The translations under genes and the position numbers were made by a program. This document shows positions 18,573-56,499 of a stretch of DNA of 64,000 nucleotides, in pieces (the stretch's first letter is position 1; every line of letters begins with the position of its first letter). The stretch is from an uncultured Planctomycetia bacterium. Lineage in GTDB: Bacteria > Omnitrophota > Gorgyraeia > VGKH01 > JBHPFN01. The DNA lies in NCBI GenBank assembly GCA_964406665.1, contig CAYOSQ010000001.1, positions 135,412-199,411 on the forward strand. The letters are read 5' to 3'. Below the pieces are notes generated by a model, which saw only the letters and a program-made list of their open reading frames with translations, was not told the DNA's origin and ran no database searches.

Positions 18573-18601
18573 CAAGCTATTTTACTATATCTTGTAGTCA
18601 A

Positions 18602-30099: not shown

Positions 30100-33000
30100 A
30101 TGTCTGAAAAAGACAAAAAAATTAGTCCTTCAAAAAACCGAACTGTGAATCGGTCTGCCCAGAACGATTCAAGCTTACCTAAGAAACTCTCCAATTGTAA
30201 AAAGATAGAACAGGCATACCTAGAAACAGAATTACATTGCTCCAATGCACTTAATTCTTTATTTGATTCAATTCTTATTGTTGATAGAGAGTTAAAAATC
30301 ACTTTAATTAATGACGCCTTTAAAGAATGGAATAAAAAACTTGGTTTGTCAGATAACATGGTGGGTAAATACCTTTTTGAAGTATTCCCGTTTTTGCCGA
30401 ATAAGGTTAAACAGGAATATGATCAAGTCATTCAAAAAAGGGAATCTCTAATAACCGAGGAACACGTAAATGTTTTAGGAAGAAACTTGATAACAGAGGC
30501 TAGAAAGATTCCAGTTTTAAGAAACGGTGAGACAGTTCAAATAATTACCATGATTAGGGATATTACTGAGCGTAAAAAAATAGAAGAGAGAATAACTAAG
30601 ATAAACAAATGCTTTCTTGATTTTAGCTCGAACGCTGATGAGAATATAAATAAATTAGTTGCTCTTTGCGGAAAAATAATGGGAGGAAAATGTTCTGTTT
30701 ATAATAGGCTAGAAGGAGGATTGCTTTGCTCAGTGGGGAAATGGAACACCCCTAAGGATTATAATTCTATTAGTAATCCTGAGGGACATATTTGTTATGA
30801 TGTTATCAAGCGCGGCAGTGGAAAGTTCTGGATAGTACGCAATTTACCTCAGTCACGTTATGGGCAATCAGACCCAAATGTAAAAAGTTTCGGACTGCAG
30901 ACTTATATAGGTATTTCTGTTTCTTTCAACGGAAAGTGCGTAAGCGCACTATGTGTTGTATATCAAGAGGATGTTGTTATAGATAATGACGATAAGAAAT
31001 TTATGCAGCTGATTGCTTCTGCCATTGCTTCAGAAGAGAAGCGTAAAGAATCAGAAAAGGCTTTGTTGACCAGCAAGGAAAAATACAAGACCTTAACTCA
31101 TAATGTTAACATAGGCATATACAGGAATACAGCTGGTTCTCATGGTAAGTTTATTGAGGCGAATCCTGCGGTCATAAAAATGTTTGGATATAAAAACAGG
31201 CGTGATTTTTTGATTCGAAATGTCTGCGATTTGTACCAAAATAAGGCAGATCGAGAAAAGTTTAGCAGGAAGTTATTGGAAAAGGGATTTGTCAAGAATG
31301 AAGAATTACGCCTTAAGAAAAAAGACGGAAAGGCTTTTCTTGCATCTGTATCTGCCGTTGCTATAAAAGATGATAATGGCGAGATCAAATATTATGATGG
31401 AATAGTTGAAGATATAACCGAGAGAAAACAATCTGAAGTTAAATTGCGTAAATCAGAAGAAAAATACAGATTTCTTTTTGAAAAAAGTGCGATTCTTGCC
31501 ATAGTTGTCGGTGAGGATAAAAAGATCAAAGATGTAAATAAGTGGACTTGGGAAACTTTAGGATATGCAAGAAATGAAATAATTGGAAAAACAGCTTTAG
31601 ATTTCGTTGTTCCTGAAGAAAGAGAAAGAGCGCGAGAGGAATTAAAAAAATCATTTAACGATGAAATATCCTCCGGTGTTGGAATTAACGTACTTGCCAA
31701 AGATGGCAGTACGCATACGATTCTTTTTTCTCCCGGACAGGTTTTACTGCAGGAAAAAGGTAAGATTTCCAGCATACTTCTAACAGGTTTAGACATTACT
31801 GATCGTAAAATATCTGAAAAAAATCAGCTTGATATGACATCACATTTGCGCGCCGTGGTAGCTGCAACCGATGAACTTATTAATTGTTCGAATCTTGAAG
31901 TTGTTTACCGCTGGGCAGTAGAATTTGCCAGAAATAAGCTAGGACTAGAGAGATGCGCGATATTTTTGGAAGAAGGAGGTTATGTTCAAGGTATTTATGG
32001 AACTGATAAAAATGGTAATACAACAGACGAACATACGAATCGTTTTTTAAAGAATGAATCCTGGAAACAGCGTTTTAGGATGCTTCATCCTCAAGACCCA
32101 AGTTGGGTGGTAGTTAAGGAGCCGCAGCTAGAATGGGATGGAGATAAAACTGTTCAAATAGGAGAAGGTTGGATTGTAATAACGCCTATTCAATCTACCC
32201 AACGTCCTATAGGCGTGTTGGTTAATGATACAGCCATAAGCGGTTGTGTATTAGATCCTATGAAGCAAGATACCTTGGCTGTGTTTTGTTCTCTCTTGGG
32301 AAACATTATTGAGCGTAAACGTGCAGAAAATAAATTAGAGATAGTTAACAAAAAACTACTTCAGTCAAACAGAAGGTTGAAACAGCTTGCTTTAAGGGAT
32401 TCTCATACTGGATTATATAATCATAGATATTTGGAAGAAGCAATCAATTCTGAATTCGACCGCGCAAAACGCTATGCCTATTCTCTTTCTGTAATTATGC
32501 TCGACATTGATTATTTTAAATCCATAAATGATGTTTATGGCCATCAGTTTGGTGACCTTATATTAAAACAGTTTTCCCGTCAACTTAAGCGTCTGGTACG
32601 TAAATATGATACTGTTATTCGTTTTGGTGGAGAAGAGTTTATTATTCTTTCCCCGGGTATTGATAGATTTACAGCCATGATTTTAGCCCGTCGACTCTTA
32701 AATGTTGTTAATTTATGCAATTTCGGCAATCAGGAAAATAGTATAAAGTTAAAATTAAGTTTGTCTATTTCTTCCTATCCTGAAGATAATGCTTCTAAAG
32801 GAATGGATTTGATTAATCTGGTTGATCAGATTTTAAACAGGGCAAAAGAAGATGGAGGAGATCGGGTTTATTCTTCCCAGGAGATGGGTAAAGAAAAAGA
32901 TCCGGTATTAAACAAGGTGGAAAGAAGTACCGATATTAATTTCCTTCAGGAAAAAATAGATAAGCTTACCAGAAGGGCGAACCAGAGTTTGATAGAAGCA

Positions 33001-33531
33001 ATCTTTGCTTTTGCAAAGACGATAAAATTAAAAGACGATTATACTGGAGAACATGTTGAGGAGACTGTGTTTTTTGCAACTGAAATAGCCAGAAGGTTAA
33101 AGTTGACTAAATTTCAAATTGAGCAGATTCGTCAGGCTTCGAAGTTGCATGATCTAGGTAAAATCGGCGTAAGCGAGAGAATTTTACGTAAAAAATCTAA
33201 ATTAACCAAGAAAGAATTTGATGAGATAAAAAAACATACTTTAATTGGAGCTGATATATTAAGGCCGATTCATTTTCTGCATGATATTATTCCGCTAATA
33301 CTTTATCATCACGAACGCTGGGATGGTACAGGGTATCCTTATGGGTTAAAGAAAGAAGAAATACCTGTTGGGGCCCGTATAGTAGCCGTTGCCGATACTT
33401 TTCAAGCACTCACCTCTGATCGCCCATATCGCAAGGCATTTTCTAAGGCTAAGGCAAAAACAATTGTTAGAGAAAATGCTGGTACGCAGTTTGATCCTAA
33501 AATAGTAAATGCATTTTTAGCTTTAACATAG
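30100..33531 (+). CDS. Multidomain c-di-GMP turnover protein: PAS/PAC sensor domains, GGDEF diguanylate cyclase and HD-GYP phosphodiesterase
   Basis: Several PAS-like blocks. GGDEF domain with DIDYFKSINDVYGHQFGD and an intact RFGGEEFIIL (GGEEF) active site. C-terminal HD-GYP with HDLGKIGV and HHERWDGTGYPYGL. Confidence 0.85.
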   Translation: MSEKDKKISPSKNRTVNRSAQNDSSLPKKLSNCKKIEQAYLETELHCSNALNSLFDSILIVDRELKITLINDAFKEWNKKLGLSDNMVGKYLFEVFPFLPNKVKQEYDQVIQKRESLITEEHVNVLGRNLITEARKIPVLRNGETVQIITMIRDITERKKIEERITKINKCFLDFSSNADENINKLVALCGKIMGGKCSVYNRLEGGLLCSVGKWNTPKDYNSISNPEGHICYDVIKRGSGKFWIVRNLPQSRYGQSDPNVKSFGLQTYIGISVSFNGKCVSALCVVYQEDVVIDNDDKKFMQLIASAIASEEKRKESEKALLTSKEKYKTLTHNVNIGIYRNTAGSHGKFIEANPAVIKMFGYKNRRDFLIRNVCDLYQNKADREKFSRKLLEKGFVKNEELRLKKKDGKAFLASVSAVAIKDDNGEIKYYDGIVEDITERKQSEVKLRKSEEKYRFLFEKSAILAIVVGEDKKIKDVNKWTWETLGYARNEIIGKTALDFVVPEERERAREELKKSFNDEISSGVGINVLAKDGSTHTILFSPGQVLLQEKGKISSILLTGLDITDRKISEKNQLDMTSHLRAVVAATDELINCSNLEVVYRWAVEFARNKLGLERCAIFLEEGGYVQGIYGTDKNGNTTDEHTNRFLKNESWKQRFRMLHPQDPSWVVVKEPQLEWDGDKTVQIGEGWIVITPIQSTQRPIGVLVNDTAISGCVLDPMKQDTLAVFCSLLGNIIERKRAENKLEIVNKKLLQSNRRLKQLALRDSHTGLYNHRYLEEAINSEFDRAKRYAYSLSVIMLDIDYFKSINDVYGHQFGDLILKQFSRQLKRLVRKYDTVIRFGGEEFIILSPGIDRFTAMILARRLLNVVNLCNFGNQENSIKLKLSLSISSYPEDNASKGMDLINLVDQILNRAKEDGGDRVYSSQEMGKEKDPVLNKVERSTDINFLQEKIDKLTRRANQSLIEAIFAFAKTIKLKDDYTGEHVEETVFFATEIARRLKLTKFQIEQIRQASKLHDLGKIGVSERILRKKSKLTKKEFDEIKKHTLIGADILRPIHFLHDIIPLILYHHERWDGTGYPYGLKKEEIPVGARIVAVADTFQALTSDRPYRKAFSKAKAKTIVRENAGTQFDPKIVNAFLALT

Positions 33532-37909: not shown

Positions 37910-38290
37910 ATGCAAGAAGAACAATATAGAAAAAGAAATTTCTCCAGAAGTTTTTCCCACGCGCTGCGCGGATTGATAACAATATGGAAAACTCAGCATA
38001 ATGCCCGACTTATTCTTATTATTGCTGTTGGTGTAATTGCTGCGGGAATAATAATGCAGATAAGCAATATCGAAATGATGATAGTACTTTTATCTATTGG
38101 TCTTGTGTTTGTTGCTGAAATATTTAATTCTATGGTTGAAGAAACAATTGATTTAATTCTTCTTTTACACTTAGAGAGAATAAAAGTTATCAAGGATATG
38201 GCAGCTGGTGCTGTCTGGATAGCATGCATAATATCAGTGGTAGTTGGTTATTTTGTTTTTATAAAACGCATAATTACTCTTTTGATGTAA
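37910..38290 (+). CDS. dgkA: Diacylglycerol kinase (DgkA)-family small membrane kinase
   Basis: 126 aa with 3 TM helices. IFNSMVEETIDL corresponds to the DgkA ALNSAIEAVVD motif. Confidence 0.6.
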   Translation: MQEEQYRKRNFSRSFSHALRGLITIWKTQHNARLILIIAVGVIAAGIIMQISNIEMMIVLLSIGLVFVAEIFNSMVEETIDLILLLHLERIKVIKDMAAGAVWIACIISVVVGYFVFIKRIITLLM

Positions 38291-38360: not shown

Positions 38361-38388
38361 TTGAAATCCAGAAAAAATATAGTATACT
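38361..38388 (+). promoter_or_regulatory. Sigma70-like promoter TTGAAA-N16-TATACT driving the second riboswitch and giant gene
   Basis: CTATTGAAATCCAGAAAAAATATAGTATACTTTCATTGG. The -10 ends about 35 nt upstream of the aptamer. Confidence 0.4.
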
Positions 38389-38424
38389 TTCATTGGAAAA
38401 ATGTCGATAAATCCTTAACGGAAC

Positions 38425-38535
38425 TCCGCAGTTTGCGGAGAGGCAAACCATTTGTAAGAGTGGGACGCAAAGCCACGGGTCTCACAATTAATAATTAATT
38501 GTGTTTATTTGAGGCGGCCGGGTTGCCGAAAGGTA
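38425..38535 (+). promoter_or_regulatory. c-di-GMP-I (GEMM) riboswitch in the 5' leader of the 2900-aa giant protein gene
   Basis: RNA reads ...CUCCGCAGUUUGCGGAGAGGCAAACCAUUUGUAAGAGUGGGACGCAAAGCCACGGGUCUCAC...GAGGCGGCCGGGUUGCCGAAAGG. Its 5' half matches the V. cholerae Vc2 aptamer GGCAAACCAUUCGAAAGAGUGGGACGCAAAGCC at 30 of 33 positions, and the 3' half conserves GGCCGGGUUGCCGA. The putative translation start is about 110 nt downstream. Confidence 0.8.
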
Positions 38536-38646
38536 AAAAATGGATACCTTTATGTAGCCCAGTCGTTTTTTTATTGAAAATTTCAAAAGGAGAGCTAAAT
38601 AAGCTATAAAAATACATAAAACTCTGAAAGGGTCAGGGGGCAAGTA

Positions 38647-41600
38647 GTGGTTTCTATAAAAAAGTGGGGAAAATTGCGGAACAGATGTATGAGTGTGTTT
38701 ATTGCACTCATTTTTTTATTCAATTCACTTACCCCTGCATATGCCTGGAGGCCAGGTAATCGTGGTGAACAAAGTGCGCTTGAATCTTTCGCGGCCGGAA
38801 GTCTTTCCGGAGGAATATCAGCCCTTACCATAGCTATGAATCCTATTGCTGGTGCACTAAGCAGCATAGCTTCAAATGTAGCCAGTACGGTTGTATATTA
38901 CAATGATTATGACAGCCAGAGCAAGCCTTGGTTTGATCTAAAGCTTTTTATTTTCTGGGGTCCTAAGATAAAAACATTTACCAAGGCGGAAGCAATAGGT
39001 ATGATTGCCGGTATTGTAGTTGGTGCTGCAGCAGGGTTTGTTGATGGAGCCATAACTGGAAATTCTGAAGAAATAGCAGCAGATGCTGCAGCTGATACTG
39101 GTTCTACGGCAGTTGTAGGCACAACCATTGGTTCTGTGGCAACAGCTGCCAGTCAAAGCTTTTTTAATAGCATGCTCAACGTTTTAACCAATATCGGTAA
39201 CTGGGTATGGAAGAATATGATTGTTGCTTCTTATAAGAACGCCAAAGAGATTTTATTAAGCCCAATAAAGACTATCATCAAAATTGTAAAGAACTTCAGT
39301 AAGATCATGCGAAGGTCCTGGGATTTATCTTTGTCTCTAGTGAAATCATTGGCTAAAACTCCAGTTGTTATCGCTAAAAATATTAGTAAAATCGCTAGGT
39401 CTATCTATAAAACTGCTTACAAGACAGCAGAGGTATCTTTGCGTTTAGCAAAGGCGTTTGTCTGGAATATACCTACAGGAATGCTCAAAAATGCATATTC
39501 TATGCTTAAGGCAACTTTTAACACTCTTACATCGGGATCATTCTGGAGCAGGACGTTTAATACTGTAGGCAGTAAGGCAGGAGCTTTGTTTAGAACACTC
39601 AGAGGCGCAGCTTCTTCTGTAGCAAAAAACATCGAACAGCTCTTTACTCAACCACTCAGTATTACCTTAAAGAATATAGGAAGGTGGCTTAAAGAGTTAC
39701 CTGTTAATTCAATTAATAGGATAAAAACGCTGGCTAAAAAAATTGGACAGAGAATAAAAAATGTTTCTCAAGCCACCAGATTTACAAATCCTTATTATCA
39801 ATATGGTGCCTTAGGGATAAAAGGGCTTCCGGCGTTTTTTGTCCAGCTTGCAGCAGACATAACTTCTGCAATGTACAGAGCTGCTTTTCAAGATGCAACT
39901 AAGGAAATTCTTGAGAAAAAACTTGGTCTGGATGAAAGCATTGCAGAGATCGCCGCAACAGAACTGATTAATAAATTTGCCGCTAAAACAATCAATCATA
40001 ATATTCTTAAAGCATTCGGCTCTGCTTTTGGCTGGGGCATAACCGCATACGGTGGTTTCATAACCGGCGAGATGCAAGAGCGTCTAAAATCAATCGAAGA
40101 GCATGGAAACAACGGAATAGAAGTGCAGGGTATAGTCGTCTCAGAAGATTCTTCTAGTCCAGATACATCAACCCAAGCCTATAACATAAAACTCAAACAG
40201 CTTGTTGGCGCAGGTGCTTTATTAAAAGATGGCACCTGGGTAAGACTTAGTGATGTTGAAGATGCCTCAGAGATAGTAGGCATAGCTGTAGCAACCGATC
40301 GAGGTGTTATCTTAATTGAACCTAATGTAAATATCATCAGCGCAGTTCAGGGATACAAGCAGGCTTTTATACAGGTAGCCAGATTATATATGAGTACCAT
40401 ATCTATGCCTGCTTCACTGAATCAACCAAGTCAAGATGGTGCTTTATCTATGTTGGTTAAGATAGGTGTACTAAAGCTCTTAAGTTACGGTAGTGGCCAT
40501 AGGGGATCATTGGGTAAGATCTGGAAGAAAAAGATAGCAGAGTTAATAGGTAAGCTTGCATCAGAATCTGCAGACAGTCCTGTGCCATCAGAGGAGCAAC
40601 TTGCAGCTTCAGATGAAAGTGAAAAAACCGAAGAGTCTCGGGAAGAAGCTGTAGAGGTTGCTAGCGCTGAATCCGGGGCATCAGTCCAAGATCAAGAAAG
40701 CTCCTCTGAAGAATCATCATCAGAAGAATCTGCGTCAACTGGCAGGAGAGAGCTTGTGTTAGAAAGCATTTCTGATTCATTTGATTCAAGTGGTAGATAT
40801 AATCCTCAAGCACATCTTTTGCCTTTTGGTGACCATCCTTATGGCGGCGATGGAGGAGGTTCCGATGAGTCTGACGAATCCGGAGAAGAAGATGATTCTG
40901 TGGTTTCAAGCTTTAGCTTCGAAGGAGAAACATTTACATTTGATGATCTAAAAAAAGTAGGAAAAATTTATAGAAGTGGTAGAAAAACAGGGATTTTTAT
41001 TTCTAATGCTATTAGAAATGGTGGAGGCTTACTTTCAGGCGGTGAAGATGAAGAAAGCATTGAGAGCGACGGCGTTATTTATACCAAGGTTGAAAATAGA
41101 GAAGTTATGATTATAGATTTAGAAACAGGAGAGATTAAGCACTTGACTGGTTCTGTAGGAGTCGTTCTTGTTACCCTTAGCGATGGATCTTCCTATTTTG
41201 CATTAGTGGATTTCGTGCAGTTGAAAAAAGATATTCAGGAGAGAAATAATTTTACTGACAGGGGAACTGAAATTTTAGCTTTTCTTCCACAGCCACTAGA
41301 AGAAATAAAGCCCCTACCCCCAAAGGAAGAAGAACAAGAAGAGCAGCCACAACTTCCCGAGCCAGTACATAAGAGAGAAGTTACTGTGGGAGGATCAGCT
41401 GTAACGGCTGCTTCAGAAGAGAGTTTTGATGAATCTGATGAATGGGGAGAGGTTACGCTGAGGCCTGAACCACAAACTCCTGAAGAAGAGCAGGAAGCAG
41501 AAGATAGAAAGGGCGGAGAGCGATTTAGTGTTGATTTAGCAGATGTCCCCGGAGCAGCGCTAGATGTTGGAGAGGCAGTTGTAAAAGTGCCTTTTGGGGT

Positions 41601-44600
41601 AGTAAAAGGAGTTGGCGGTCTTGCTGGATCTTTGCTTGGTCTTAAGAAAAAAACTCCAGCAGAATTAGCACGTGAGGCTGCAGAAGATGAAATTAAAATA
41701 GGGGAGCAGATTTTAGAGGAATTTAATGATTCAGATTCTGAAATTACTATTTCAGTAGATAATGAAGGAACTTCAGGAAGGTGTGGTGGTGCTTGTAGGC
41801 TTGAGGTTGATGATCCTTATGAAAGACCTTATCCGGAATATGAACATACTGGAAGATGTTTAAAAAGAGCCCTAGGAAGAGACCCTCAAAGAGCTAACCA
41901 GCTTAAAGCAATGATTAAACAGGTTGTTGCTTTAGGCAATGAGCTTATCGGTGATCCTAAGTTTCGTATTAAACATGTTAAGTTTACTGATAAATTTCCT
42001 TCCCATGCCAATTATTATACTAATACAATTTACCTTAATGTTGATGATTTTCTTTTGGGTTCACACAAAATAAAATACGATGAAGAAGGTTGTGCATCTG
42101 GGTTATGTTCTGAAGAAAGTGCTGGGGAACTTACACATCATGAAGCTTCCCATTTTATTGTTGATAGCAATGTTGATTTACAGCTTGATGAAGTTTATGG
42201 AAAACTTCTTGTTATGATGCAGGGTATTCCGGGATTTGCCCTTATGCCAGGTTCTCGACACACAGCACATCATTATTCAAAGACTAATCAAGAAGAATTT
42301 GCTGCAACGGGATTGGAACCGATTGTTAATTCTGGCAAAGGCAGTGCTTTTGCTGATTCAGTCCTAGCTTGGAAGCGTCGCGGTGATCCTAAGGCAGATG
42401 TTGCAGGTAATTTATATGTAAAATTTTCCCAGGATATTGCCGGACTTGAAGCTGATGAACGAGTGACTGCTCTTTATCCTCCGGGCAGTTTTGAATATAA
42501 AACTCCTGATAATTTAGATCATTATGTGCGCGAGGTGCTTTTAGATAAAGGTTTAGCTGAGCTTGTTAGAGAAAATATTTATTATGGATTTCATGCGGCG
42601 ATGCTTCATGCCCCGGATGCATTAATGGCTTCTTTGGAAAAAGTTATAAACGATCCGTCTTTAACAGCAAGTGATGTTCATACAATATTGGTTGGTTTAA
42701 ATGCTATAGATAAAAACTATAATAGTGAAAACTCTGTTGGTTTAAATTTATCGCGCATGTATCCTCATATGTTGCGCTTGATTGCTGATATGCAAAATGC
42801 AGTTAATCAGGGATATCCTAAGGAATCAGTTGGCAAAGTTGCTCCTTTAAGAAATGCTTCAGGAGAAGAGTTAGGCAGGATCGAATTTTCTGATATGGAT
42901 ATGATTAAGGGAAGCCATTTCTTCCAGTGGATGATACAGAATATTCCTAATATGGAAAACGGAATAAATCTGGATATCGCATTAAGCTTGTTGAACTCTC
43001 TCGATCCCGAGGGCGGCAATTCACGCGAGCAGTTGCGCAGCGCTTTAGCAGGGATCGAAATACCTGCTTTTGCTACAAGATTCAATTTGTCTCAATTGAG
43101 CTCTAGCGATCTTCAGCAGATGGACCCTGTTGAATTTATTGCAGGTTTAATCCGCGCCCAGCAATCTATGGATGCATTATCAGCTAATGAAGATTTTGCA
43201 GCAGAATTAGGTGGTAAAAGAATAGTTCTTAAAACTGGAGAGGCAAGAGATCTATTGCATTCTTCTAACGATGCATCTGAGCCGATTTCTATCGGAATTG
43301 ATCTGGCCAAAGATCAAAACCAGCTAGTAGCTGAGGCAATAGCAGGTGCAGGTTTAATCCTTGCGCCGAATCTACTTTTTTCCGATGAATTTAAACAGGT
43401 TCTCTCAGAGAATTCATTTACAGATATTTCTATATTGTTTAATCAAGATGGTAGTTTGGTTCAGCGCGGTGATTCTCAGGAGCTATTTCGAGTTTTAATA
43501 CCTGCATATGTATTGCATGGTGAAGATTTTGTTAATTACATTGAAAGTTATAAGGGTAAAAACCCAGATGCTTATAATACATTGTTGAGAGCCTTCGTTT
43601 TAATTCGTGAGCAAGTTTTTAAAGGGCACACATTTTTGGAAAATGGGGTAGACCCTTTTGCAGGAACCAAGTTAGGAGATATACCTGCAGTAACAGAGTT
43701 TAATTTGCAGAATTGGTTAAATGGTATTTTAAGACAAGAAGGCTCGGGATCATCTTCTTCAGATTCAACAAATATTAAAACTGGCTCACTTAATTTAGAG
43801 AGTAGTCATCAGAGTCGAGAACTTGTATTAGCAAGTGCTATGGATTCATTCAGCATGCAGGATAGATACAATCCTCAGGCACATCTGTTGCCCATGGAGC
43901 CACATCCAGTATCAGCCTCGGGAGAAGAATCTCAAGATCCTGTTGGGTCTATTACTGCAGGAGAATTTGCTCAATTTGGTCATATCTTGCGAAATAAGAT
44001 TTTACCAGACCTACAGTTAAGAGAAGAGTTCTTGCAAGAAGTAGTTAGTGCTCTTGAAACCGGAAATATGCGAATGCTTTCACTAGTGTTTAATACGACT
44101 GCTAACTTCTCTGATGTCTCAGAAATAGTTCATAGGCCAATGATTGAACATATTGCTTCGATGTCATCTTCTCAAGTAGAGAGGCTAGAATTTACTGATC
44201 AGATTATTCAAGGCTTACAGCAGAATAATAGGTTCAGCGCAAAACTAAAACAAGTTATCAGGGATCCGCGATTCGCTAAATCTGCAGATAAGCTTTTAGG
44301 TGTATTGTTTAAGTTTGATCCTGAAACATCCGGTATGATCGCCGCGGAGTTAGGAAATCATTATATCTGGAATTTACTGGATACTAAAGAGCGGCAACAG
44401 CAGCGCGATAGTGTTGATCGTTTTCTTAAAGATTATGGCTGGGAGATAGGCATGTGGGGATATGATCAAGATTTTTTATGGGAACCGAGTTTGACAACTG
44501 GTTCTCTTGACGGCCATAGTAGAAGATGGCTTAGAGTACCAATCAAAAGATCTTTTAATTTCAAAGAAGGAGGTTGGAGTGAAGAAAGTAGTCATGGCGT

Positions 44601-47349
44601 TACAGGAACAACTTGGTCAATTGGTTATCGTAAAGAAGGTTTAAGATTACCAAAAGATAGCCATGGCGAGATCCCTGAAGGATACCACTACTACGAGGTA
44701 GATCCAGATCCAGTTATTAACCACGAATTTTTCACACTTAACTATGCAAAAGGGGTAGCAAGCTTTGGTGTTGGACTTGGAAAACTTAGTCATATTTTCC
44801 GCGGCGGTAGGTACGATCCAGAAATAGGAGAAATTCGAGTTAACAAAACAGTAGGTTTGTTAAGTCTTGGTATTGGCTTCGGAGGTCCAGTTACTTATAA
44901 AGGTACCTATTTGGGACATTTTGGGTTTGAAGCTTATGTTGATAAAAAATTTGGATCTACGCATTCTAGTGCAGGAACAGATGTGGGGGTTGCCCTTGAA
45001 TACGGTTTACCATTAAGTCGGATGATCCCGAGCATCCGTTCTTCAAAACCCAAAACACCTCTTTGGGGACCAGGAACAATGCCAACACAGCCATCCAGTT
45101 CTAGCTCTACTGCTGAAGAGAAAAAGCCAAAAGAAACATCTTTGAATATTTCACCAGAGTTACAAAAACCTGCTGAACAACATGCTTCAACAGGAGGTTC
45201 TGGAATACAAATGGCTTCAGCTTCTCGAGAGCTTGTTTTAGAAGGTATCCCTGATTCTTTCGATTTAAGCGGCAGCTACAATCCTCAAACACATCTTTTG
45301 CCTTTAGAGCCGCATGGAAGAGCATCCGGGGGTGGATTAGATAGCAGGGCTAGAGCTGTAATGGAAAAAAGACAGAGAAGCGTGCAAACAAGAAGGGCAT
45401 ATGAAAAAAAGAGGGCTCAAATAGTGGGCGTAGAAGATACGCCGGATCTTTCTTTTGTAGATCGCAGTAATATATTTTTAGCGAAGATTTATGATAAGAC
45501 AGGTTTGGGCAATGGGAAAGCTAGAGAGATTAGAAATGATGCATATAATAAAGCAGTAGAAATTGGAGATGCTGAATCAGCTGCAGGAATCGCAGAAGAG
45601 CTTGGCGACCAGCTTTCTGGAGAAGATCTTTTTTCTAGAGCCGATATAAGATATGCGCAGGCAGATTCAGTTTTAACCAACCAGGCATCAGTGGACAGCA
45701 TATCCCTTGAAAGAGTTCATGTTAAAGCAGTGCAGATGCATGAGGGTGCTGGTGATGAAGCTCTGAAAGTAGGAGAAGCTGCGCTCGAAGCATTTGATTC
45801 AGCAATAGAAAATAAAGAAGGCCTCCCTGGTGGAAATGCATCATATCATATTAAGGCAGAAGAACATTATGTAAACGCACAAGAATGGATAGAATCAAGT
45901 AGCTTTTTTGATCCAACGGTAATTGCGAGGTTTAGAGAAAAGCAGTCTCAATCAGGGGAAGGTGCAGCCCGCATCCATATGGCAAAGACGTTATTCGAGC
46001 ATAATGAACCGATTGAAGCCCTTAACCATCTTTCTAGGATAACAATAAACGAAGAAAATAGAGACTGGGTGCAACAGGAATTGGATGAGGTTGATGTTCA
46101 TTTAGAAAGTGGAGATATGTTAAGAAAAAATTATCTTTGGAGATCTCGCAAGCTATTTGATTTTGTAATCGGAGGATTAAAAAGCAACAGCCCGTATGTT
46201 GATGTATTATCTAGTTCTTCAGCACCTACAATAGATGAAGATAATAGGCTACGTTTTAACTATTCAGAAAATGACAGCAAGGATCAATGGATCGGTAAAA
46301 CAGCTGTGATTTGGGGAGATGATATAATTGATGGTGGGAATAATTTAATTTCGGCATTTAGAAGAGATGGATTTAATAATTTATTTTATTTTTATGAAAC
46401 ACCTAATCGAAATGAATATTTTTATTCACCTAAAAATCGGTTCCAACAATTGAGACGTCAAAAAGGCATCTTGGCAGATGCTGCCTTAATTCCGTCAACA
46501 ATGCAAGATATTGTTGCTAGAATTTATGCAGATAGAAGTCTTGCTGATAGAGTGGCTTTTGGTCAACATGGAGACAGGAAAGTAGATACCTATTTTCCTT
46601 TTCTTAAATATGGATTCTCTCAGCTTAATCCAGGTAATTACGCTAGATATTATGCTCCTATTAGGGCATTGGTTAGAGGAGAAGCGGAAATTTATAATTG
46701 CTTTTTGGCTTCTGACGGCGTTCCAGTCGCTGATACGCATTATTACAATCGTAGAAATAGTAGGCCTTATACTTCTATGGTGTTAGAGGGTAGATTTGAA
46801 AATAAGAGAAATACATGGAGTAGGCAGTTGAGAAATTGGTTTGCAAAACGTACTCTGCCAGGGCATGTTTTGCGTCTTCCCCCTATGCTTACGAGTCTTG
46901 AAGATAGCACATTAAGAGTTATGGATTACAGAAATTTTTTAAATAGTGAGATTGAACAGATTGAAAGAATTCGAGGAAGCACTCCTCATTATAGAGATTT
47001 GACCTGGGTTACTGGAAATCAATATCCAAAGCTGCGAGCAAGAGACACAGAAGCTAATTTTAGGAATTTTTTACGTAAGCAACCACAGAATTTAGAGCTT
47101 TTCTATAGAATCCTTGAGATATCTGATAGCAGATATTTGACTAAAGAGGTTCAAAGAATTCAAACCCAAGTAGATAGAATAGGAGATGAAGATGATTTAA
47201 TGCAGATGATGAATTATCCAACTGGTCAGAAATTTACTGAGCTTATAAAAGGTGTTCAAAAAGCGCTTGGTGTAGAAGCTGATGGAGTTTTTGTCCCTGG
47301 TGGAGAAACTGATGCTGCCCTTAAGAAGGTTGAAGCGCAGATAAGATAG
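38647..47349 (+). CDS. Giant secreted or envelope protein (2900 aa) with signal peptide, Gly/Ala-rich and Lys-rich amphipathic N-terminal region, acidic Ser/Glu linkers, three internal conserved repeats, an HExxH motif and a C-terminal peptidoglycan-binding (PG_binding_1-like) domain
   Basis: One uninterrupted 8.7 kb ORF with a GTG start 8 nt after an AGGGGG RBS. N-terminus MVSIKKWGKLRNRCMSVFIALIFLFNSLTPAYA is a signal peptide. Repeats RELVLxxxxDSFxxxxxYNPQxHLLPxxxHP occur at about aa 700, 1725 and 2195. LTHHEASHF at about aa 1165 fits HExxH. The C-terminal FTELIKGVQKALGVEADGVFVPGGETDAALKKVEAQ matches the PGBD-1 consensus. Confidence 0.8.
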   Translation: MVSIKKWGKLRNRCMSVFIALIFLFNSLTPAYAWRPGNRGEQSALESFAAGSLSGGISALTIAMNPIAGALSSIASNVASTVVYYNDYDSQSKPWFDLKLFIFWGPKIKTFTKAEAIGMIAGIVVGAAAGFVDGAITGNSEEIAADAAADTGSTAVVGTTIGSVATAASQSFFNSMLNVLTNIGNWVWKNMIVASYKNAKEILLSPIKTIIKIVKNFSKIMRRSWDLSLSLVKSLAKTPVVIAKNISKIARSIYKTAYKTAEVSLRLAKAFVWNIPTGMLKNAYSMLKATFNTLTSGSFWSRTFNTVGSKAGALFRTLRGAASSVAKNIEQLFTQPLSITLKNIGRWLKELPVNSINRIKTLAKKIGQRIKNVSQATRFTNPYYQYGALGIKGLPAFFVQLAADITSAMYRAAFQDATKEILEKKLGLDESIAEIAATELINKFAAKTINHNILKAFGSAFGWGITAYGGFITGEMQERLKSIEEHGNNGIEVQGIVVSEDSSSPDTSTQAYNIKLKQLVGAGALLKDGTWVRLSDVEDASEIVGIAVATDRGVILIEPNVNIISAVQGYKQAFIQVARLYMSTISMPASLNQPSQDGALSMLVKIGVLKLLSYGSGHRGSLGKIWKKKIAELIGKLASESADSPVPSEEQLAASDESEKTEESREEAVEVASAESGASVQDQESSSEESSSEESASTGRRELVLESISDSFDSSGRYNPQAHLLPFGDHPYGGDGGGSDESDESGEEDDSVVSSFSFEGETFTFDDLKKVGKIYRSGRKTGIFISNAIRNGGGLLSGGEDEESIESDGVIYTKVENREVMIIDLETGEIKHLTGSVGVVLVTLSDGSSYFALVDFVQLKKDIQERNNFTDRGTEILAFLPQPLEEIKPLPPKEEEQEEQPQLPEPVHKREVTVGGSAVTAASEESFDESDEWGEVTLRPEPQTPEEEQEAEDRKGGERFSVDLADVPGAALDVGEAVVKVPFGVVKGVGGLAGSLLGLKKKTPAELAREAAEDEIKIGEQILEEFNDSDSEITISVDNEGTSGRCGGACRLEVDDPYERPYPEYEHTGRCLKRALGRDPQRANQLKAMIKQVVALGNELIGDPKFRIKHVKFTDKFPSHANYYTNTIYLNVDDFLLGSHKIKYDEEGCASGLCSEESAGELTHHEASHFIVDSNVDLQLDEVYGKLLVMMQGIPGFALMPGSRHTAHHYSKTNQEEFAATGLEPIVNSGKGSAFADSVLAWKRRGDPKADVAGNLYVKFSQDIAGLEADERVTALYPPGSFEYKTPDNLDHYVREVLLDKGLAELVRENIYYGFHAAMLHAPDALMASLEKVINDPSLTASDVHTILVGLNAIDKNYNSENSVGLNLSRMYPHMLRLIADMQNAVNQGYPKESVGKVAPLRNASGEELGRIEFSDMDMIKGSHFFQWMIQNIPNMENGINLDIALSLLNSLDPEGGNSREQLRSALAGIEIPAFATRFNLSQLSSSDLQQMDPVEFIAGLIRAQQSMDALSANEDFAAELGGKRIVLKTGEARDLLHSSNDASEPISIGIDLAKDQNQLVAEAIAGAGLILAPNLLFSDEFKQVLSENSFTDISILFNQDGSLVQRGDSQELFRVLIPAYVLHGEDFVNYIESYKGKNPDAYNTLLRAFVLIREQVFKGHTFLENGVDPFAGTKLGDIPAVTEFNLQNWLNGILRQEGSGSSSSDSTNIKTGSLNLESSHQSRELVLASAMDSFSMQDRYNPQAHLLPMEPHPVSASGEESQDPVGSITAGEFAQFGHILRNKILPDLQLREEFLQEVVSALETGNMRMLSLVFNTTANFSDVSEIVHRPMIEHIASMSSSQVERLEFTDQIIQGLQQNNRFSAKLKQVIRDPRFAKSADKLLGVLFKFDPETSGMIAAELGNHYIWNLLDTKERQQQRDSVDRFLKDYGWEIGMWGYDQDFLWEPSLTTGSLDGHSRRWLRVPIKRSFNFKEGGWSEESSHGVTGTTWSIGYRKEGLRLPKDSHGEIPEGYHYYEVDPDPVINHEFFTLNYAKGVASFGVGLGKLSHIFRGGRYDPEIGEIRVNKTVGLLSLGIGFGGPVTYKGTYLGHFGFEAYVDKKFGSTHSSAGTDVGVALEYGLPLSRMIPSIRSSKPKTPLWGPGTMPTQPSSSSSTAEEKKPKETSLNISPELQKPAEQHASTGGSGIQMASASRELVLEGIPDSFDLSGSYNPQTHLLPLEPHGRASGGGLDSRARAVMEKRQRSVQTRRAYEKKRAQIVGVEDTPDLSFVDRSNIFLAKIYDKTGLGNGKAREIRNDAYNKAVEIGDAESAAGIAEELGDQLSGEDLFSRADIRYAQADSVLTNQASVDSISLERVHVKAVQMHEGAGDEALKVGEAALEAFDSAIENKEGLPGGNASYHIKAEEHYVNAQEWIESSSFFDPTVIARFREKQSQSGEGAARIHMAKTLFEHNEPIEALNHLSRITINEENRDWVQQELDEVDVHLESGDMLRKNYLWRSRKLFDFVIGGLKSNSPYVDVLSSSSAPTIDEDNRLRFNYSENDSKDQWIGKTAVIWGDDIIDGGNNLISAFRRDGFNNLFYFYETPNRNEYFYSPKNRFQQLRRQKGILADAALIPSTMQDIVARIYADRSLADRVAFGQHGDRKVDTYFPFLKYGFSQLNPGNYARYYAPIRALVRGEAEIYNCFLASDGVPVADTHYYNRRNSRPYTSMVLEGRFENKRNTWSRQLRNWFAKRTLPGHVLRLPPMLTSLEDSTLRVMDYRNFLNSEIEQIERIRGSTPHYRDLTWVTGNQYPKLRARDTEANFRNFLRKQPQNLELFYRILEISDSRYLTKEVQRIQTQVDRIGDEDDLMQMMNYPTGQKFTELIKGVQKALGVEADGVFVPGGETDAALKKVEAQIR
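40741..40860 (+). repeat. Intragenic protein repeat 1 (GRRELVLESISDSFDSSGRYNPQAHLLPFGDHPYGG)
   Basis: One of three about 35-aa conserved motifs inside the giant ORF, each flanked by acidic/Ser-rich low-complexity linkers. Confidence 0.6.
43807..43920 (+). repeat. Intragenic protein repeat 2 (SRELVLASAMDSFSMQDRYNPQAHLLPMEPHP)
   Basis: Same motif as repeat 1. Confidence 0.6.
45221..45320 (+). repeat. Intragenic protein repeat 3 (SRELVLEGIPDSFDLSGSYNPQTHLLPLEPHG)
   Basis: Same motif as repeat 1. Confidence 0.6.
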
Positions 47350-47580
47350 AGAAGACCGGAGCTGTTAGTTCAAAATTAAAAAACCAAAGATCAATATCAA
47401 AAAAGCGATCGCTTTTGAGAATTTAATTCTAGCTTTTTGTAAAAAAGCTTTAATGTAGCAACCTTCCCAAAACTCATTTTACCTTGCCAAAACCTACCCA
47501 AATAGAGTAGAATAAGTGGATATAACAAGCTCTAATTTAAGAAGATAAGTACCTTTCTTTCAAGTAACAATATAGCAGAT

Positions 47581-48540
47581 ATGTTCAAAGACAAAAAAGT
47601 ATTAGTTGCTGGTGGCGCTGGTTTCGTAGGAGTGAATCTGATTAAAAGACTTCTAGATTTAGGTGCAGATATAACCGCCACGCTGCATAAAAAACCCGCA
47701 GTTTTGCAAGATGACCGCATTTCATATATTTACTGTGATTTAATAAAACCAGAAGATTGTGTTAGGGTAGTTAAAGATATTCAGTTTGTATTTATGTGCG
47801 CTGCTAATACGTCTGGTGCAGCAGTTATGGCTAAGACACCCTTGGTACATGTTACCCCCAATGTTATTATGAATACACTTTTTTTAGATGCTGCTTATCA
47901 GGCAGGGGTAGAGAAGTTTCTGTTTATTAGCAGCAATACTGTTTATCCTTCAACAGATCATCCTGTAAAAGAAGAAGAGATGTTAAGCGGAGATTTATTT
48001 GAGAAATATTTCTGCGTTGGTTGGATGAAGCGTTTTACTGAAATCCTCTGTCAGATGTATACCCAAAAGATTAAAAACCCAATGAAAACAGTAGTTGTGC
48101 GCCCGGCAAATATATTTGGCCTAGGAGATGATTTTCAATGGGAAACATCTCACGTGATTCCGGCATTAATCCGTAAAGCTATCGAGCGACATGACCCTGT
48201 TGAAGTTTGGGGAGATGGGAGCGATATCAAAGATCTAATCTTTATCGAGGATTTTATTGAGGGAATGTTGCTTGCTATGGAGAAGATTGATACGTTCGAC
48301 CCTGTTAACATAGGCACAGGAAAATCTATCAGTATAAAAGAAGCGCTTCAGATAATATTAAAAGTTGCTGGCTATAAAGATGCAAAAATTAAATTTGATA
48401 CTTCTAAGCCAACAATGATACCGAAAAGATTAATTGATGTTTCTAAAGCAAAAAAACAATTGGGGTTTGAGGCAAAAACCTCGTTTGAAGAAGGAATAAA
48501 GAAAACTATTCAGTGGTATAAGGAAAATCCAGCAAAATAG
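47581..48540 (+). CDS. NAD-dependent epimerase/dehydratase (GDP-L-fucose synthase-like)
   Basis: N-terminal Rossmann VLVAGGAGFVGVNL and the SDR-extended fold. 319 aa. Confidence 0.75.
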   Translation: MFKDKKVLVAGGAGFVGVNLIKRLLDLGADITATLHKKPAVLQDDRISYIYCDLIKPEDCVRVVKDIQFVFMCAANTSGAAVMAKTPLVHVTPNVIMNTLFLDAAYQAGVEKFLFISSNTVYPSTDHPVKEEEMLSGDLFEKYFCVGWMKRFTEILCQMYTQKIKNPMKTVVVRPANIFGLGDDFQWETSHVIPALIRKAIERHDPVEVWGDGSDIKDLIFIEDFIEGMLLAMEKIDTFDPVNIGTGKSISIKEALQIILKVAGYKDAKIKFDTSKPTMIPKRLIDVSKAKKQLGFEAKTSFEEGIKKTIQWYKENPAK

Positions 48541-48567
48541 ATTTAACTTATCAGTAGGAGTAAAAAT

Positions 48568-49578
48568 ATGATTATTAGCAGAACACCATTTCGCATTTCG
48601 TTTTTTGGCGGAGGAACAGATTATCCCGGTTGGTATAAAGATCATCCCGGAGCAGTGCTTGCAGCAAGTATTGATAAATACTGTTATATAAGCTGTCGAA
48701 TGCTGCCGCCATTTTTCAAATACAAATATCGTATTGTTTACACCAACAGAGAAGAAGTTAATAAGATATCTGAAATCGATCATCCTTCTGTTCGAGAAAC
48801 ACTTAAGTTCCTCAATGAAAAGAGAGGATTACATATTCATCATGATGCAGATTTACCTGCACGTACAGGGCTTGGTTCAAGTTCAACCTTTACTGTCGGT
48901 CTTCTGCATACGCTGTATGCTTTGCGAGGTAAAATTGTTTCCAAAAAACAACTGGCTTTAGAAGCAATTAATATAGAACAGAATTTGATTAAAGAACACG
49001 TTGGTTCGCAAGATCAGACAATCGCTGCTTTTGGCGGGTTTAACAAGATTGAGTTTCGACCGGAAAATATTGAAGTTCATCCTATAACAATAAATCCTGA
49101 TAAGATAGATAATTTTTCCCGTCACATTATGATGTATTTTACAGGTTTTTCCAGGATTGCCTCAGAAGTTGCGCGTCATCAGATTGAAGCTATCCCGCGC
49201 AGAAAAAAAGAGTTGCATGAAATGTATCAATTCGTGGGAGAGGCAGTTAAAATACTTAACAACAAAAGACCTTCGTTTATAGATTTTGGTAAGCTTCTAC
49301 ATGAAAATTGGAAGATTAAAAAAAGTTTAACCGGAAGAATATCTACATCATATATTGACAACATATATGAAACTGCGCGCAGAGCCGGTGCCACAGGAGG
49401 AAAGTTATTAGGTGCAGGTGGAGGTGGGTTTATGATTTTCTTTGTAAAGCCTTCTAGGCAGCCGAAAGTAAGAGAGGCATTGAAAAAATTACTCTATGTG
49501 CCGGTTAAGTTTGAATCTTTGGGAAGCCAGATAGTTTACTTCCGCCCCTACTACAATTTTGACCAGAATGGAAAATGA
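48568..49578 (+). CDS. GHMP-family sugar kinase (D-glycero-D-manno-heptose 7-phosphate kinase HddA-like)
   Basis: N-terminus RTPFRISFFGGGTDYPGW matches the HddA-type RxPxRISFxGGGTD. GHMP motif LPARTGLGSSSTF. Confidence 0.7.
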   Translation: MIISRTPFRISFFGGGTDYPGWYKDHPGAVLAASIDKYCYISCRMLPPFFKYKYRIVYTNREEVNKISEIDHPSVRETLKFLNEKRGLHIHHDADLPARTGLGSSSTFTVGLLHTLYALRGKIVSKKQLALEAINIEQNLIKEHVGSQDQTIAAFGGFNKIEFRPENIEVHPITINPDKIDNFSRHIMMYFTGFSRIASEVARHQIEAIPRRKKELHEMYQFVGEAVKILNNKRPSFIDFGKLLHENWKIKKSLTGRISTSYIDNIYETARRAGATGGKLLGAGGGGFMIFFVKPSRQPKVREALKKLLYVPVKFESLGSQIVYFRPYYNFDQNGK

Positions 49579-50288
49579 GTAATAAGCTTGCAGAAATAGA
49601 CAGCATAATTTTATGTGGTGGTTTAGGTAAACGATTAGAAAGTATTGCTGGTAGTAAGCCAAAAGCAATGCTTGAGATAAATCAAAAACCCTTCCTGGAT
49701 ATTCTTATTGAGTTTTTGATTAAATCCGGATGCAAAAGAACAATTTTGTGTATCGGACATCTAGGTGAAACAATTAAATCATATTATGGTCAGAGACAAT
49801 TGTCGATTGAAATTATTTTTTCAGAAGAAAAAGAACCATTGGGTACTGGTGGAGCAATAAAAAATGCAAAAGAGCTTATTAAAAGCGATACATTTCTTGC
49901 AATGAACGGAGATAGTTTTTGTAATGTAGGGCTGGATAAGTTTTTTGATTTTCACATTGAGAAAAATGCTTTATTGTCTTTGGTTTTGGCAAAATCAGAT
50001 AGTGTGAGCGATTATGCTAAAGTTGAGTTAGAAGATAGCGGAAGAATTACAAGTTTTCAGGAGAAGCCAGATATTTCCGGTGTAGCTTTAATTAATGCTG
50101 GAATTTATCTTATGAAAAGAGAAATTTTTTCTCATATGCCTGAAAACAATTCTTTTTCACTTGAGAAAGATGTATTTCCACAAGTACTTAATTTAGAATG
50201 CCATGGTTTCTTAAGTAGTTCACCTTGTATAGATATTGGCACACCCCAGAGATATGAAAATGCAAAGAAGGTTTTAACAAAAAGATAA
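49575..50288 (+). CDS. Sugar-1-phosphate nucleotidyltransferase (heptose-1-phosphate guanylyltransferase HddC-like)
   Basis: ILCGGLGKRL is the nucleotidyltransferase signature. 237 aa. Overlaps the kinase stop (ATGA). Confidence 0.75.
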   Translation: MSNKLAEIDSIILCGGLGKRLESIAGSKPKAMLEINQKPFLDILIEFLIKSGCKRTILCIGHLGETIKSYYGQRQLSIEIIFSEEKEPLGTGGAIKNAKELIKSDTFLAMNGDSFCNVGLDKFFDFHIEKNALLSLVLAKSDSVSDYAKVELEDSGRITSFQEKPDISGVALINAGIYLMKREIFSHMPENNSFSLEKDVFPQVLNLECHGFLSSSPCIDIGTPQRYENAKKVLTKR

Positions 50289-50290
50289 TT

Positions 50291-50992
50291 ATGACAGTTA
50301 CACTTATAATGCTTTGTTTAAATGAGTTGGAGTGCCTAAAGGTAATACTGCCACGCATAAACAAAGAATGGGTAGATGAAATTATTATTGTTGACGGACA
50401 TTCTACCGACGGAAGTATCGAATATGCTAAAGAACTAGGCTTTGATATTTTATTGCAGAAGGATAAAGGGGTTATTGCAGGTTATCAGGAAGGATTAGAG
50501 GCTGCCAAAGGAGATGTGATTATTACATTTACACCTGATGGAAATATGATACCGGAAAAAATTCCTGAACTGGCAGATAAGATGAAGCAAGGTTATGACA
50601 TGGTCACAGTTTCACGCTATGCTCAAGGAGCAAAGAGTTACGATGATACTTTAATATCTGGTTTTGGAAACTGGATGTTTACAAAATTAGTGAATATATT
50701 GTTTCGTGCTAAATATACTGATGTTTTAGGTTTTTACCGTGCGTTTAAAAAGGATATTTTTAAAAGACTGGATCTTGAAGGTGCTATAAGGATTAGCGTT
50801 GACACACAGCTATGTATTAGATGTGCTAAGAGAGGATTAAAGGTTGCAGATATACCAGGAGATGAACCCATAAGAATTAGTGGCGGAAGTTATAGGAGTA
50901 TTATTAAAAATGGCATTTTAGAATTGTTTACAATAATTGAGGAATTTTTTCTTATATTTGTTAGGCCTTTTAAGAAAGAAAAATTGTCATGA
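50291..50992 (+). CDS. Family 2 glycosyltransferase (polyprenyl-phosphate sugar synthase-like)
   Basis: IIVDGHSTDGS and the FTPDGNM DxD region. 233 aa. Confidence 0.7.
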   Translation: MTVTLIMLCLNELECLKVILPRINKEWVDEIIIVDGHSTDGSIEYAKELGFDILLQKDKGVIAGYQEGLEAAKGDVIITFTPDGNMIPEKIPELADKMKQGYDMVTVSRYAQGAKSYDDTLISGFGNWMFTKLVNILFRAKYTDVLGFYRAFKKDIFKRLDLEGAIRISVDTQLCIRCAKRGLKVADIPGDEPIRISGGSYRSIIKNGILELFTIIEEFFLIFVRPFKKEKLS

Positions 50993-51981
50993 AGATATTG
51001 ATTACCGGAATAACTGGTTTTGTAGGAAGTCATTTAGCGGAACATATACTTTCTCTAAAGCAGCGCCATAAGATTTTTGGTTTATGTCGCTGGAGAAGCC
51101 CGCGGAATAATTTATCAGAGGTTTTCGATAAGATCTCTTTGCTTGAAGCGGATCTCGGTGATGTTAGCTCTTTATCCAGACTGCTTAAAGAAAACAAGCC
51201 TGATGTTATTTTTCATCTGGCAGCTCAGAGCTACGTGCTTACAAGTTTTAATTCCCCCATTCAGACTTTGTGGACAAATGTTATTGGAACCGCTAATCTT
51301 CTTGAGGCAATAAGATTGACGGCAATTGATCCGGTTGTACATGTTTGTTCTTCCTCGGAAGTCTACGGACAAGCTCAGAAAGAAGATGTACCCATTAAAG
51401 AAACATGTTCGCTTCGTCCTGCCTCGCCGTATGCAGTAAGCAAGGTTGGCGAAGATATGGTAGCCTATCAATATTGGATTTCTCATAAAATCAAAACTAT
51501 ACGTACAAGAATGTTTACTCATACAGGTCCTAGAAGAGGGGATGTATTTGCTTTATCATTTTTTGCCAAGCAAGTTGCAGCTGCAGAATTAAATTTATGT
51601 AAACCAATTATCCGTGTAGGAAACTTAAAATCAGTACGCACTGTCTGTGATGTTCGCGATGCTGTCAGGGCATACTGGATTATGGTTAATAAATGTAAGC
51701 CCGGAGAAGTTTATAATATTGGCGGAAACCGTACGTTGACCGTGGGAGAGGCGCTAGATATTCTATTGTCTTTTTCACAAAAAAAGTGTGAAGTTAAGGT
51801 GGATCCAGAGTTATTGCGTCCTTCAGATATAACGTTGCAGATTCCCTGCATTGATAAATTCAAAGATGAAACTGGCTGGGAACCAGAAATCCCGTTAGAG
51901 AAAACTTTAGAAGATATGCTTAATTACTGGCGCGAGGAACTTAAGAAAAATCCCTGGCAAAGCAAAACCGTAGTTCGATAA
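50989..51981 (+). CDS. NAD-dependent nucleotide-sugar 4,6-dehydratase/epimerase (GDP-mannose- or GDP-heptose-dehydratase-like)
   Basis: MKILITGITGFVGSHL Rossmann motif and YAVSK (YxxxK) catalytic motif. 330 aa. Confidence 0.75.
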   Translation: MKILITGITGFVGSHLAEHILSLKQRHKIFGLCRWRSPRNNLSEVFDKISLLEADLGDVSSLSRLLKENKPDVIFHLAAQSYVLTSFNSPIQTLWTNVIGTANLLEAIRLTAIDPVVHVCSSSEVYGQAQKEDVPIKETCSLRPASPYAVSKVGEDMVAYQYWISHKIKTIRTRMFTHTGPRRGDVFALSFFAKQVAAAELNLCKPIIRVGNLKSVRTVCDVRDAVRAYWIMVNKCKPGEVYNIGGNRTLTVGEALDILLSFSQKKCEVKVDPELLRPSDITLQIPCIDKFKDETGWEPEIPLEKTLEDMLNYWREELKKNPWQSKTVVR

Positions 51982-51992
51982 ATTATAAATAT

Positions 51993-53986: not shown

Positions 53987-53988
53987 TA

Positions 53989-55477: not shown

Positions 55478-55482
55478 AAGAT

Positions 55483-56481: not shown

Positions 56482-56499
56482 AATCTCATTTATAAATTC

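Follow-up and report, generated by a model that had tools for sequence, protein, structure and literature searches.

The 2,900-codon gene that begins at position 38647 of the window (the whole 64,000-nt stretch of DNA analysed here) is preceded by a leader that probably acts as a class I cyclic di-GMP (c-di-GMP) switch of the transcriptional ON type. The gene encodes a very large protein, predicted to be secreted or anchored in the membrane, and its host most likely belongs to the candidate phylum Omnitrophota. On the strength of its covariance-model match, the aptamer in this leader is assigned to the class I c-di-GMP riboswitches, a known class with a new host gene. Both the riboswitch class and the logic of terminator-based ON control are textbook knowledge. 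What is new is that the switch is conserved in front of the genes for a rare group of very large Omnitrophota proteins, some of which are followed by giant genes headed by a C39 peptidase domain.

Aptamer, promoter and terminator of the leader

To locate structured RNAs, all 4,227 families of Rfam 15 were compared with the whole window using cmscan. Only two matches exceeded the curated thresholds, and both belong to RF01051 (c-di-GMP-I/GEMM; gathering score, 35 bits), one at 38432-38530 on the plus strand and the other at 18496-18573 on the minus strand. The plus-strand match covers the complete model (positions 1-87 of 87) with a score of 66.1 bits and an E-value of 1e-10. An earlier sequence-only reading of this DNA had proposed a plus-strand GEMM aptamer located between a promoter and the ORF of 2,900 aa, and the sequences and coordinates that it quoted proved right within a few bases (the U-run is at 38566-38572). 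The two checks that it had suggested, an RF01051 covariance-model search and a comparison of orthologous leaders, were both positive, with the E-value given above and with a riboswitch in 10 of 11 loci as described below.

In the cmscan alignment, helix 1 of the aptamer occupies 38443-38468 and carries a GUAA tetraloop, and helix 2 occupies 38471-38524, its apical hairpin being long and AU-rich. All invariant consensus letters occur in the aptamer, namely the G before GC (38442; consensus position 11), GCCGAA and the run GCAAAG; the stretch GGCAAACC...AAAGCC is located at 38442-38474 and GGCGGCCGGGUUGCCGAAAGG at 38513-38533. A consensus fold of 11 related aptamers by RNAalifold recovered both GEMM-I helices and predicted 18 base pairs, eight of which show compensatory changes. 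With regard to the tetraloop and its receptor, the GUAA loop is present, and the internal loop of helix 2 (CUCAC / UGA) is poorly matched to the receptor consensus (CUAA / uAu), as judged from the aligned sequences. In addition, a short 5' hairpin (CUCCGCA-GUU-UGCGGAG, 38424-38440) adjoins the aptamer in the minimum free energy (MFE) folds; it is not kept in relatives, being missing from the leaders of L002, L003 and L007 (three of the related loci introduced below).

Upstream of the aptamer, a scan for sigma-70-type promoters identified a plus-strand site with 10 of 12 matches, consisting of TTGAAA (38361-38366), a 16-nt spacer and TATACT (38383-38388). Four sites of this quality were found and 3.4 were expected, so the promoter put forward in the sequence-only reading does not rise above chance as a single site. 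What speaks in its favour is recurrence: a TTGACA-like -35 element and a TATACT or TATATT -10 element were observed at the equivalent place in relatives with enough upstream sequence, for example L002, L003, L005, L007, L009, L012 and L013. The operon upstream of the site ends at 38290, its last gene being dgkA-like (37910-38290). Farther upstream, 5 kb 5' of the riboswitch, the plus-strand gene at 30100-33531 encodes a 1,143-aa PAS/GAF-GGDEF-HD_5 (HD-GYP-type) protein, which from its domains is likely to be a c-di-GMP synthase/hydrolase.

Folding of the leader revealed an intrinsic terminator at 38515-38572, in which CGGC.GGGUUGC (38515-38526) pairs with GUAGCCC.GUCG (38554-38565), followed by a run of seven U (38566-38572). 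An apical hairpin (AAAGGUA/UACCUUU) occupies 38529-38551. The segment 38505-38580 forms one dominant hairpin with a free energy of -26.9 kcal/mol (z -4.1) and then the U7 run, and the MFE folds of the whole leader include the terminator hairpin. The possible secondary hairpin and the U-run that had been pointed out in the sequence-only reading are therefore the apex and the tail of a single intrinsic terminator, and the 5' arm of this terminator is the 3' arm of the aptamer. More precisely, the terminator 5' arm (38515-38526) overlaps the 3' arm of aptamer helix 2 (GGC GG CCGGGUU, 38513-38524) over a shared stretch of 38515-38524. By the cmscan pairing and this overlap, 38513-38524 is the putative switching segment common to both structures. 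The rest of the leader (38573-38646) contains a run of five G (38635-38639) 7 nt 5' of the GTG, which is likely to be a Shine-Dalgarno element.

The terminator at 38515-38572 was missed by a simple terminator scan because the loop limit of that scan was 3-8 nt. The sole terminator-like site that the scan returned, a hairpin followed by T7 at 38689-38711 (ATGAGTGTG...CACTCAT TTTTTTA), was rejected. It lies inside the signal-peptide codons and is conserved in relatives because the sequence encodes MS..IALIFLF, so that the hairpin is probably a coincidence and not a terminator.

With the 3' arm of aptamer helix 2 serving a second time as the terminator 5' arm, the aptamer and terminator folds exclude each other. 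When the leader was folded without constraints, the terminator-containing structure had a free energy of -46.9 kcal/mol, compared with -31.1 kcal/mol for the most stable structure in which the aptamer pairs are retained; these nearest-neighbour energies ignore tertiary contacts and co-transcriptional kinetics. Since the terminator-containing fold is much the more stable, termination would be the default state and an aptamer stabilised by its ligand would be needed for read-through. From this architecture we infer a polarity of the ON type.

Conservation in relatives and alternative readings

DNA was retrieved for 12 further loci of the gene family (L002-L013, with L003 identical to L006). RF01051 matches were found directly 5' of the family gene and on the same strand in L002 (52.9 bits), L003/L006 (53.0 bits), L005 (51.8 bits), L007 (50.4 bits), L008 (40.7 bits), L009 (49.8 bits), L010 (47.4 bits), L011 (60.8 bits) and L012 (53.7 bits). 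With L004, whose sequence ends 114 nt 5' of the gene, left out and the window counted, 10 of the 11 loci that could be assessed have the aptamer-terminator unit ahead of the family gene. In L013, which contains the most divergent family member (P0049), no aptamer was detected even at a permissive threshold, and a promoter-like site is found 40 nt from the start codon. Thus, the link between the aptamer and the family is not obligatory.

The upstream neighbours vary among the ten riboswitch-bearing loci (UbiA, acyl-carrier/ketoacyl-synthase genes and others). All ten carry a CCGGGYUGCC arm followed by its complement and a U-run. Comparison of these terminators revealed covariation at several pairs, with U-A replaced by C-G at arm position 6, G-C replaced by A-U at positions 4 and 8, and A-U replaced by G-C at position -1. 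Moreover, a G-to-A change in L005 breaks an aptamer pair and is compensated in the terminator.

Two further sequence elements were noticed in the family leaders. The first is a partly palindromic AGTTTTAAAAAGT motif, which most family loci carry between terminator and start codon; it is located at 1303-1315 in L002, approximately 20-32 nt 5' of the start codon in L007, L008, L009 and L010, and approximately 45 nt 5' of it in L003/L005. The riboswitch-less locus L013 also carries a motif of this type (ACTTTAAAAAAC), and the version in the window (38573-38590) is degenerate; the motif may serve in translation initiation or as a site for protein binding. The second is the 9-mer GCCACGGA, the same as the 5' arm of aptamer helix 2, which recurs at the coding start in L003 (2905-2925), L004 (25-40), L005, L007 and L009, where it supplies the codons for (E/K)-P-R. 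This recurrence may be a coincidence of the conserved MI(E/K)PR N-terminus, or the 9-mer may be a second partner of the switching arm.

The overlap of aptamer and terminator in all ten loci also bears on the direction of control. If the aptamer were real but the switch worked as an OFF switch or at the level of translation, c-di-GMP would lower the expression of the large gene. OFF switches are common among c-di-GMP-I riboswitches, Cd1 of C. difficile (PMC6366702) being an example, and both polarities may occur in the present genome, as the terminator of the second aptamer in the window does not overlap its aptamer. In the leader of the large gene, however, the terminator 5' arm belongs to the ligand-binding fold, so that the bound aptamer and the terminator cannot coexist, and the start codon and the G-run lie 75 nt beyond the terminator, where no predicted pairing with the aptamer covers them. 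We therefore regard such an arrangement as improbable for this gene and retain the ON switch as the preferred reading.

The second aptamer (18496-18573, minus strand) scores 61.5 bits. Its terminator (GCCCAUCCA...UGGAUGGGU followed by U6, approximately 18458-18487) lies wholly 3' of the aptamer, and this riboswitch may work in the opposite direction to the one at 38432-38530. It leads four minus-strand genes (17142-18419, 14815-17115, 13186-14775 and 10753-13149), the products of which have type IV pilin-like (class III) N-terminal signals (KAFTLFE, KGFVLIG and similar); two of these products (425 and 529 aa) contain pretoxin-HINT/intein-like domains. Both aptamers in the window thus precede genes for exported proteins, as the surface-remodelling regulon suggested in the sequence-only reading would have it. 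The regulated cargo nevertheless looks more like pili and exported effector or attachment proteins than like general envelope remodelling, and the regulon itself is something that we infer rather than observe.

As for the ligand, we take G20, A47 and C92 (Vc2 numbering) to be the ligand-contacting nucleotides of the class, and the conserved unpaired G of the window aptamer is mapped to Vc2 G20. The presence of G at this position suggests c-di-GMP rather than cGAMP as the ligand. In work on Geobacter GEMM-Ib riboswitches, an A at the Vc2 G20 position reportedly leads to binding of 3',3'-cGAMP. It is very unlikely that the window aptamer senses 3',3'-cGAMP or another cyclic dinucleotide in such a GEMM-Ib-like manner, given that G occupies the position both in this aptamer and in nine of ten family aptamers and that the gene for a GGDEF/HD_5 enzyme (30100-33531) is nearby. 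The aptamer that favours such a reading is that of L011 (2069-2187, 60.8 bits), which has A at the G20-aligned position (AAAAAGCAAAC), and this riboswitch could differ in ligand specificity.

Finally, the idea that the element is a decayed or chance aptamer-like sequence, with a hairpin and U-run that merely terminate the dgkA-like gene, is effectively refuted by the comparative data: the upstream operon does need a terminator somewhere and the promoter scan alone does not exceed chance, but the model match is full-length (E-value of 1e-10), compensatory changes are present, and the promoter-aptamer-terminator unit travels with the family gene into ten genomic contexts.

The large protein, its family and the C39-headed genes

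The regulated ORF extends from GTG 38647 to 47349 on the plus strand (2,900 codons); public gene calls start at ATG 38689 and yield 2,886 aa. The protein is exactly the same as P0007 from public assemblies and differs by one residue from P0001. The sequence-only reading had called this gene giant, a term that does not apply: at 2,900 aa it is better called very large, as it is below the cut-offs in use in the field (at least 10,000 aa, or more than 30,000 aa). Comparison of the 2,900-aa protein with Pfam, NCBIfam and PDB sequences gave no match, even at E-values up to 0.1-1.

The family-defining part of the protein is an N-terminal module of residues ~12-230 (38680-39336), delimited by family search, alignment and hydropathy. 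It contains a signal peptide at residues 14-33 (ending in ...LTPAYA, with WRPGN following the cleavage position), a YYNDY motif and, according to hydropathy, a strongly hydrophobic Gly/Ala-rich helix at residues 114-138. The product of the large gene is predicted to be secreted or membrane-anchored.

Farther along the protein, the motif RELVL...YNPQxHLLP occurs in three near-identical copies, at residues ~701 (40744-40827), ~1724 (43813-43896) and ~2194 (45223-45306), with the consensus (S)RELVLExIxDSFDxSGxYNPQxHLLP. Each copy follows an acidic Ser/Gly/Glu-rich linker, and together they split the protein into four blocks. The motif was not found in other family representatives; its copies could be docking or processing sites. 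A double-glycine (C39) cleavage site at the three repeats was considered and rejected, as the repeats contain no GG and are missing from other members. In addition, a single HExxH motif (HEASH, residues 1165-1169; 42139-42153) is a possible zinc-protease signature, with no supporting profile or structure match. AlphaFold2 models of residues 1010-1420 (single sequence) and of the N-terminal 250 aa (alignment of nine rows) had pLDDT values of 39.8 and 44.5, respectively, both of which are too low for fold comparison.

A word-indexed search of 5.8 billion proteins retrieved only the protein itself and P0002 (3,073 aa), which shares the first ~640 residues with the window protein at 38% identity. 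When the first 650 residues were compared by HMMER with 1.84 billion representatives, 36 proteins were detected at E-values up to 1e-3. Nearly all of these are 1,000-3,800 aa in length, and the matched region lies at the N-terminus, or close to it, in almost every one. The word index recovered eight members with concatenated N-terminal segments as the query; the 26-row N-terminal alignment gave no match there, probably owing to an excess of Gly/Ala-rich words. Members of the family share the pattern ...ALIFLFN..PA(Y/W)A.R.GNYG...MYY..Y...KGQ..SM.AG, and those with a source name come from Candidatus Omnitrophota. Judging from these names of homologues, the window too probably derives from a bacterium of this phylum. 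The conserved N-terminal module spans ~110-230 aa, and the remainder is unrelated between members. Cargo domains are sparse and varied: Peptidase_M23, HopBA1, OmpA and ChaN/Tiki were each found in one member.

In five loci (L002, L007, L009, L010 and L012), the next sizeable gene downstream starts with a Peptidase_C39 domain. In L007, L009 and L012 the stop codon of the family gene overlaps the start codon of this gene or almost touches it, and a 108-aa ORF intervenes in L010. The C39-headed gene encodes 10,850 aa in L007 and at least 4,062 aa in L012. No C39 gene was found downstream of the large gene in the window. There, a plus-strand run of sugar-nucleotide and polysaccharide genes (47581-57888) begins 231 nt 3' of the large gene and includes epimerases/dehydratases, a GHMP kinase, a nucleotidyltransferase, a family 2 glycosyltransferase and transketolase-like subunits. 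A promoter-like site (47484-47513) lies ahead of these genes, and no clear terminator was seen between them and the large gene.

It was also observed that in nine related loci the ORF continues upstream in frame, adding an M(x)8-15-GGKGE(I/V)LxFS extension before the signal peptide (1329-1420 in L002, with equivalents among L003-L012). The remnant of this extension in the window (38620-38650) is degenerate and out of frame (...KGSGGK and then TAG); directly behind this stretch lies the GTG or ATG start of the gene. The GG extension and the downstream C39 gene co-occur in L002, L007, L009, L010 and L012, the loci in which the downstream gene is visible; the window and L013 have neither of them. 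This co-occurrence hints at C39 cleavage after the GG of the N-terminal extension.

Predicted operation of the switch and comparison with known systems

c-di-GMP is a second messenger that typically signals the attached state. In the mechanism that we propose, transcription would start from the TTGAAA/TATACT promoter, and the aptamer (38432-38530) would be made first. With c-di-GMP bound, aptamer helix 2 would keep the segment 38513-38524, the terminator stem would be blocked, and RNA polymerase would enter the 8.7-kb gene; without the ligand, the more stable terminator would form and transcription would halt near 38572. Through c-di-GMP, the attached state would in this way permit the cell to make very large and costly exoproteins, with which it would attach to other cells or attack them. 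Such a logic would be economical, as a transcript could be aborted at about nucleotide 180 instead of being committed to 9-40 kb.

A broader but considerably more tentative reading, which we put forward as a possibility worth pursuing, is that the promoter, the ON riboswitch and the N-terminal module form a phylum-specific Omnitrophota cassette. Contact with a host or prey cell would raise c-di-GMP, which would then license operons of 9 to more than 40 kb, comprising a very large exoprotein with polymorphic cargo and then a C39-headed giant protein, whose peptidase could cleave between GG and KGE of the conserved N-terminal ...GGKGE motif. If true, this would offer a first way to approach how the giant genes of these nanobacteria are regulated.

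Few bacterial genes are as poorly understood as the very large and giant ones of Omnitrophota, which have almost no annotated domains and come from uncultivated hosts, and no published information on their regulation was found in the literature searched. A conserved gate of the kind described here predicts expression at high c-di-GMP, typically in the attached state, and can be tested in vitro without culture. Moreover, the combination of RF01051 and the N-terminal module offers a sequence tag for finding these operons in metagenomes. It has been suggested previously that the large and giant genes of Omnitrophota serve in attachment or predation, and in attached cells of V. archaeovorus (Omnitrophota) peptides from giant ORFs were threefold higher than in unattached cells (Seymour et al. 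2023, PMC10066038). A c-di-GMP or attachment trigger is consistent with this observation, which is circumstantial. Neither that survey nor the study by West-Roberts et al. 2023 (bioRxiv 10.1101/2023.11.21.568195) mentions riboswitches or c-di-GMP, and a full-text search for Omnitrophota together with riboswitches returned only an unrelated study of ComFB, as preprint and in published form. A description of a c-di-GMP gate on very large Omnitrophota genes was thus not found in the literature searched.

Compared with Vc2 and the RF01051 class in general, the window aptamer is alike in its full-length match, its two-helix architecture, the GNRA (GUAA) loop and the conserved G, GCAAAG and GCCGAA elements. 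It differs in the long AU-rich insertion in helix 2, the off-consensus receptor-like loop, the uncultivated host, probably of the Omnitrophota, and the terminator that reuses the aptamer 3' arm. Cd1, in the flgB leader of C. difficile, is an OFF switch of the same aptamer class in which the ligand promotes termination (PMC6366702); control of termination is common to both, whereas the predicted polarity is opposite, as the ligand-bound fold of the window would use up the terminator 5' arm.

On the protein side, the family resembles polymorphic toxin and effector architectures in its conserved N-terminal module and variable cargo, and pretoxin-HINT proteins are encoded behind the other riboswitch. 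However, neither a toxin domain nor an immunity gene could be recognised in the window locus, so that this is a matter of resemblance, not membership. With regard to the giant genes of Omnitrophota, defined as encoding more than 30,000 aa (very large, at least 10,000 aa) and reported to have C39 domains near the N-termini of their proteins (West-Roberts et al. 2023), the shared features are the very large size and poor annotation of the ORFs, the signal peptides at the N-termini and, in L002, L007, L009, L010 and L012, C39 domains in the downstream genes; the window differs in that its ORF has only 2,900 aa and is not followed by a C39 gene.

The closest parallel to the proposed control is Bc2 of Bacillus thuringiensis, a c-di-GMP-I riboswitch for which ON switching has been demonstrated by experiment and whose intrinsic terminator precedes cap, the gene of the collagen adhesion protein (PMC4933901). 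In both systems a class I aptamer and a terminator come before the gene of a large protein that is exported or located at the surface; the default state is repression and c-di-GMP allows read-through, as shown for Bc2 and predicted here. The window, in contrast, belongs to another phylum and its riboswitch serves an unrelated protein; furthermore, the unit stays together with a protein family (1,000-3,800 aa) and in several loci heads an operon in which a C39-headed gene comes second.
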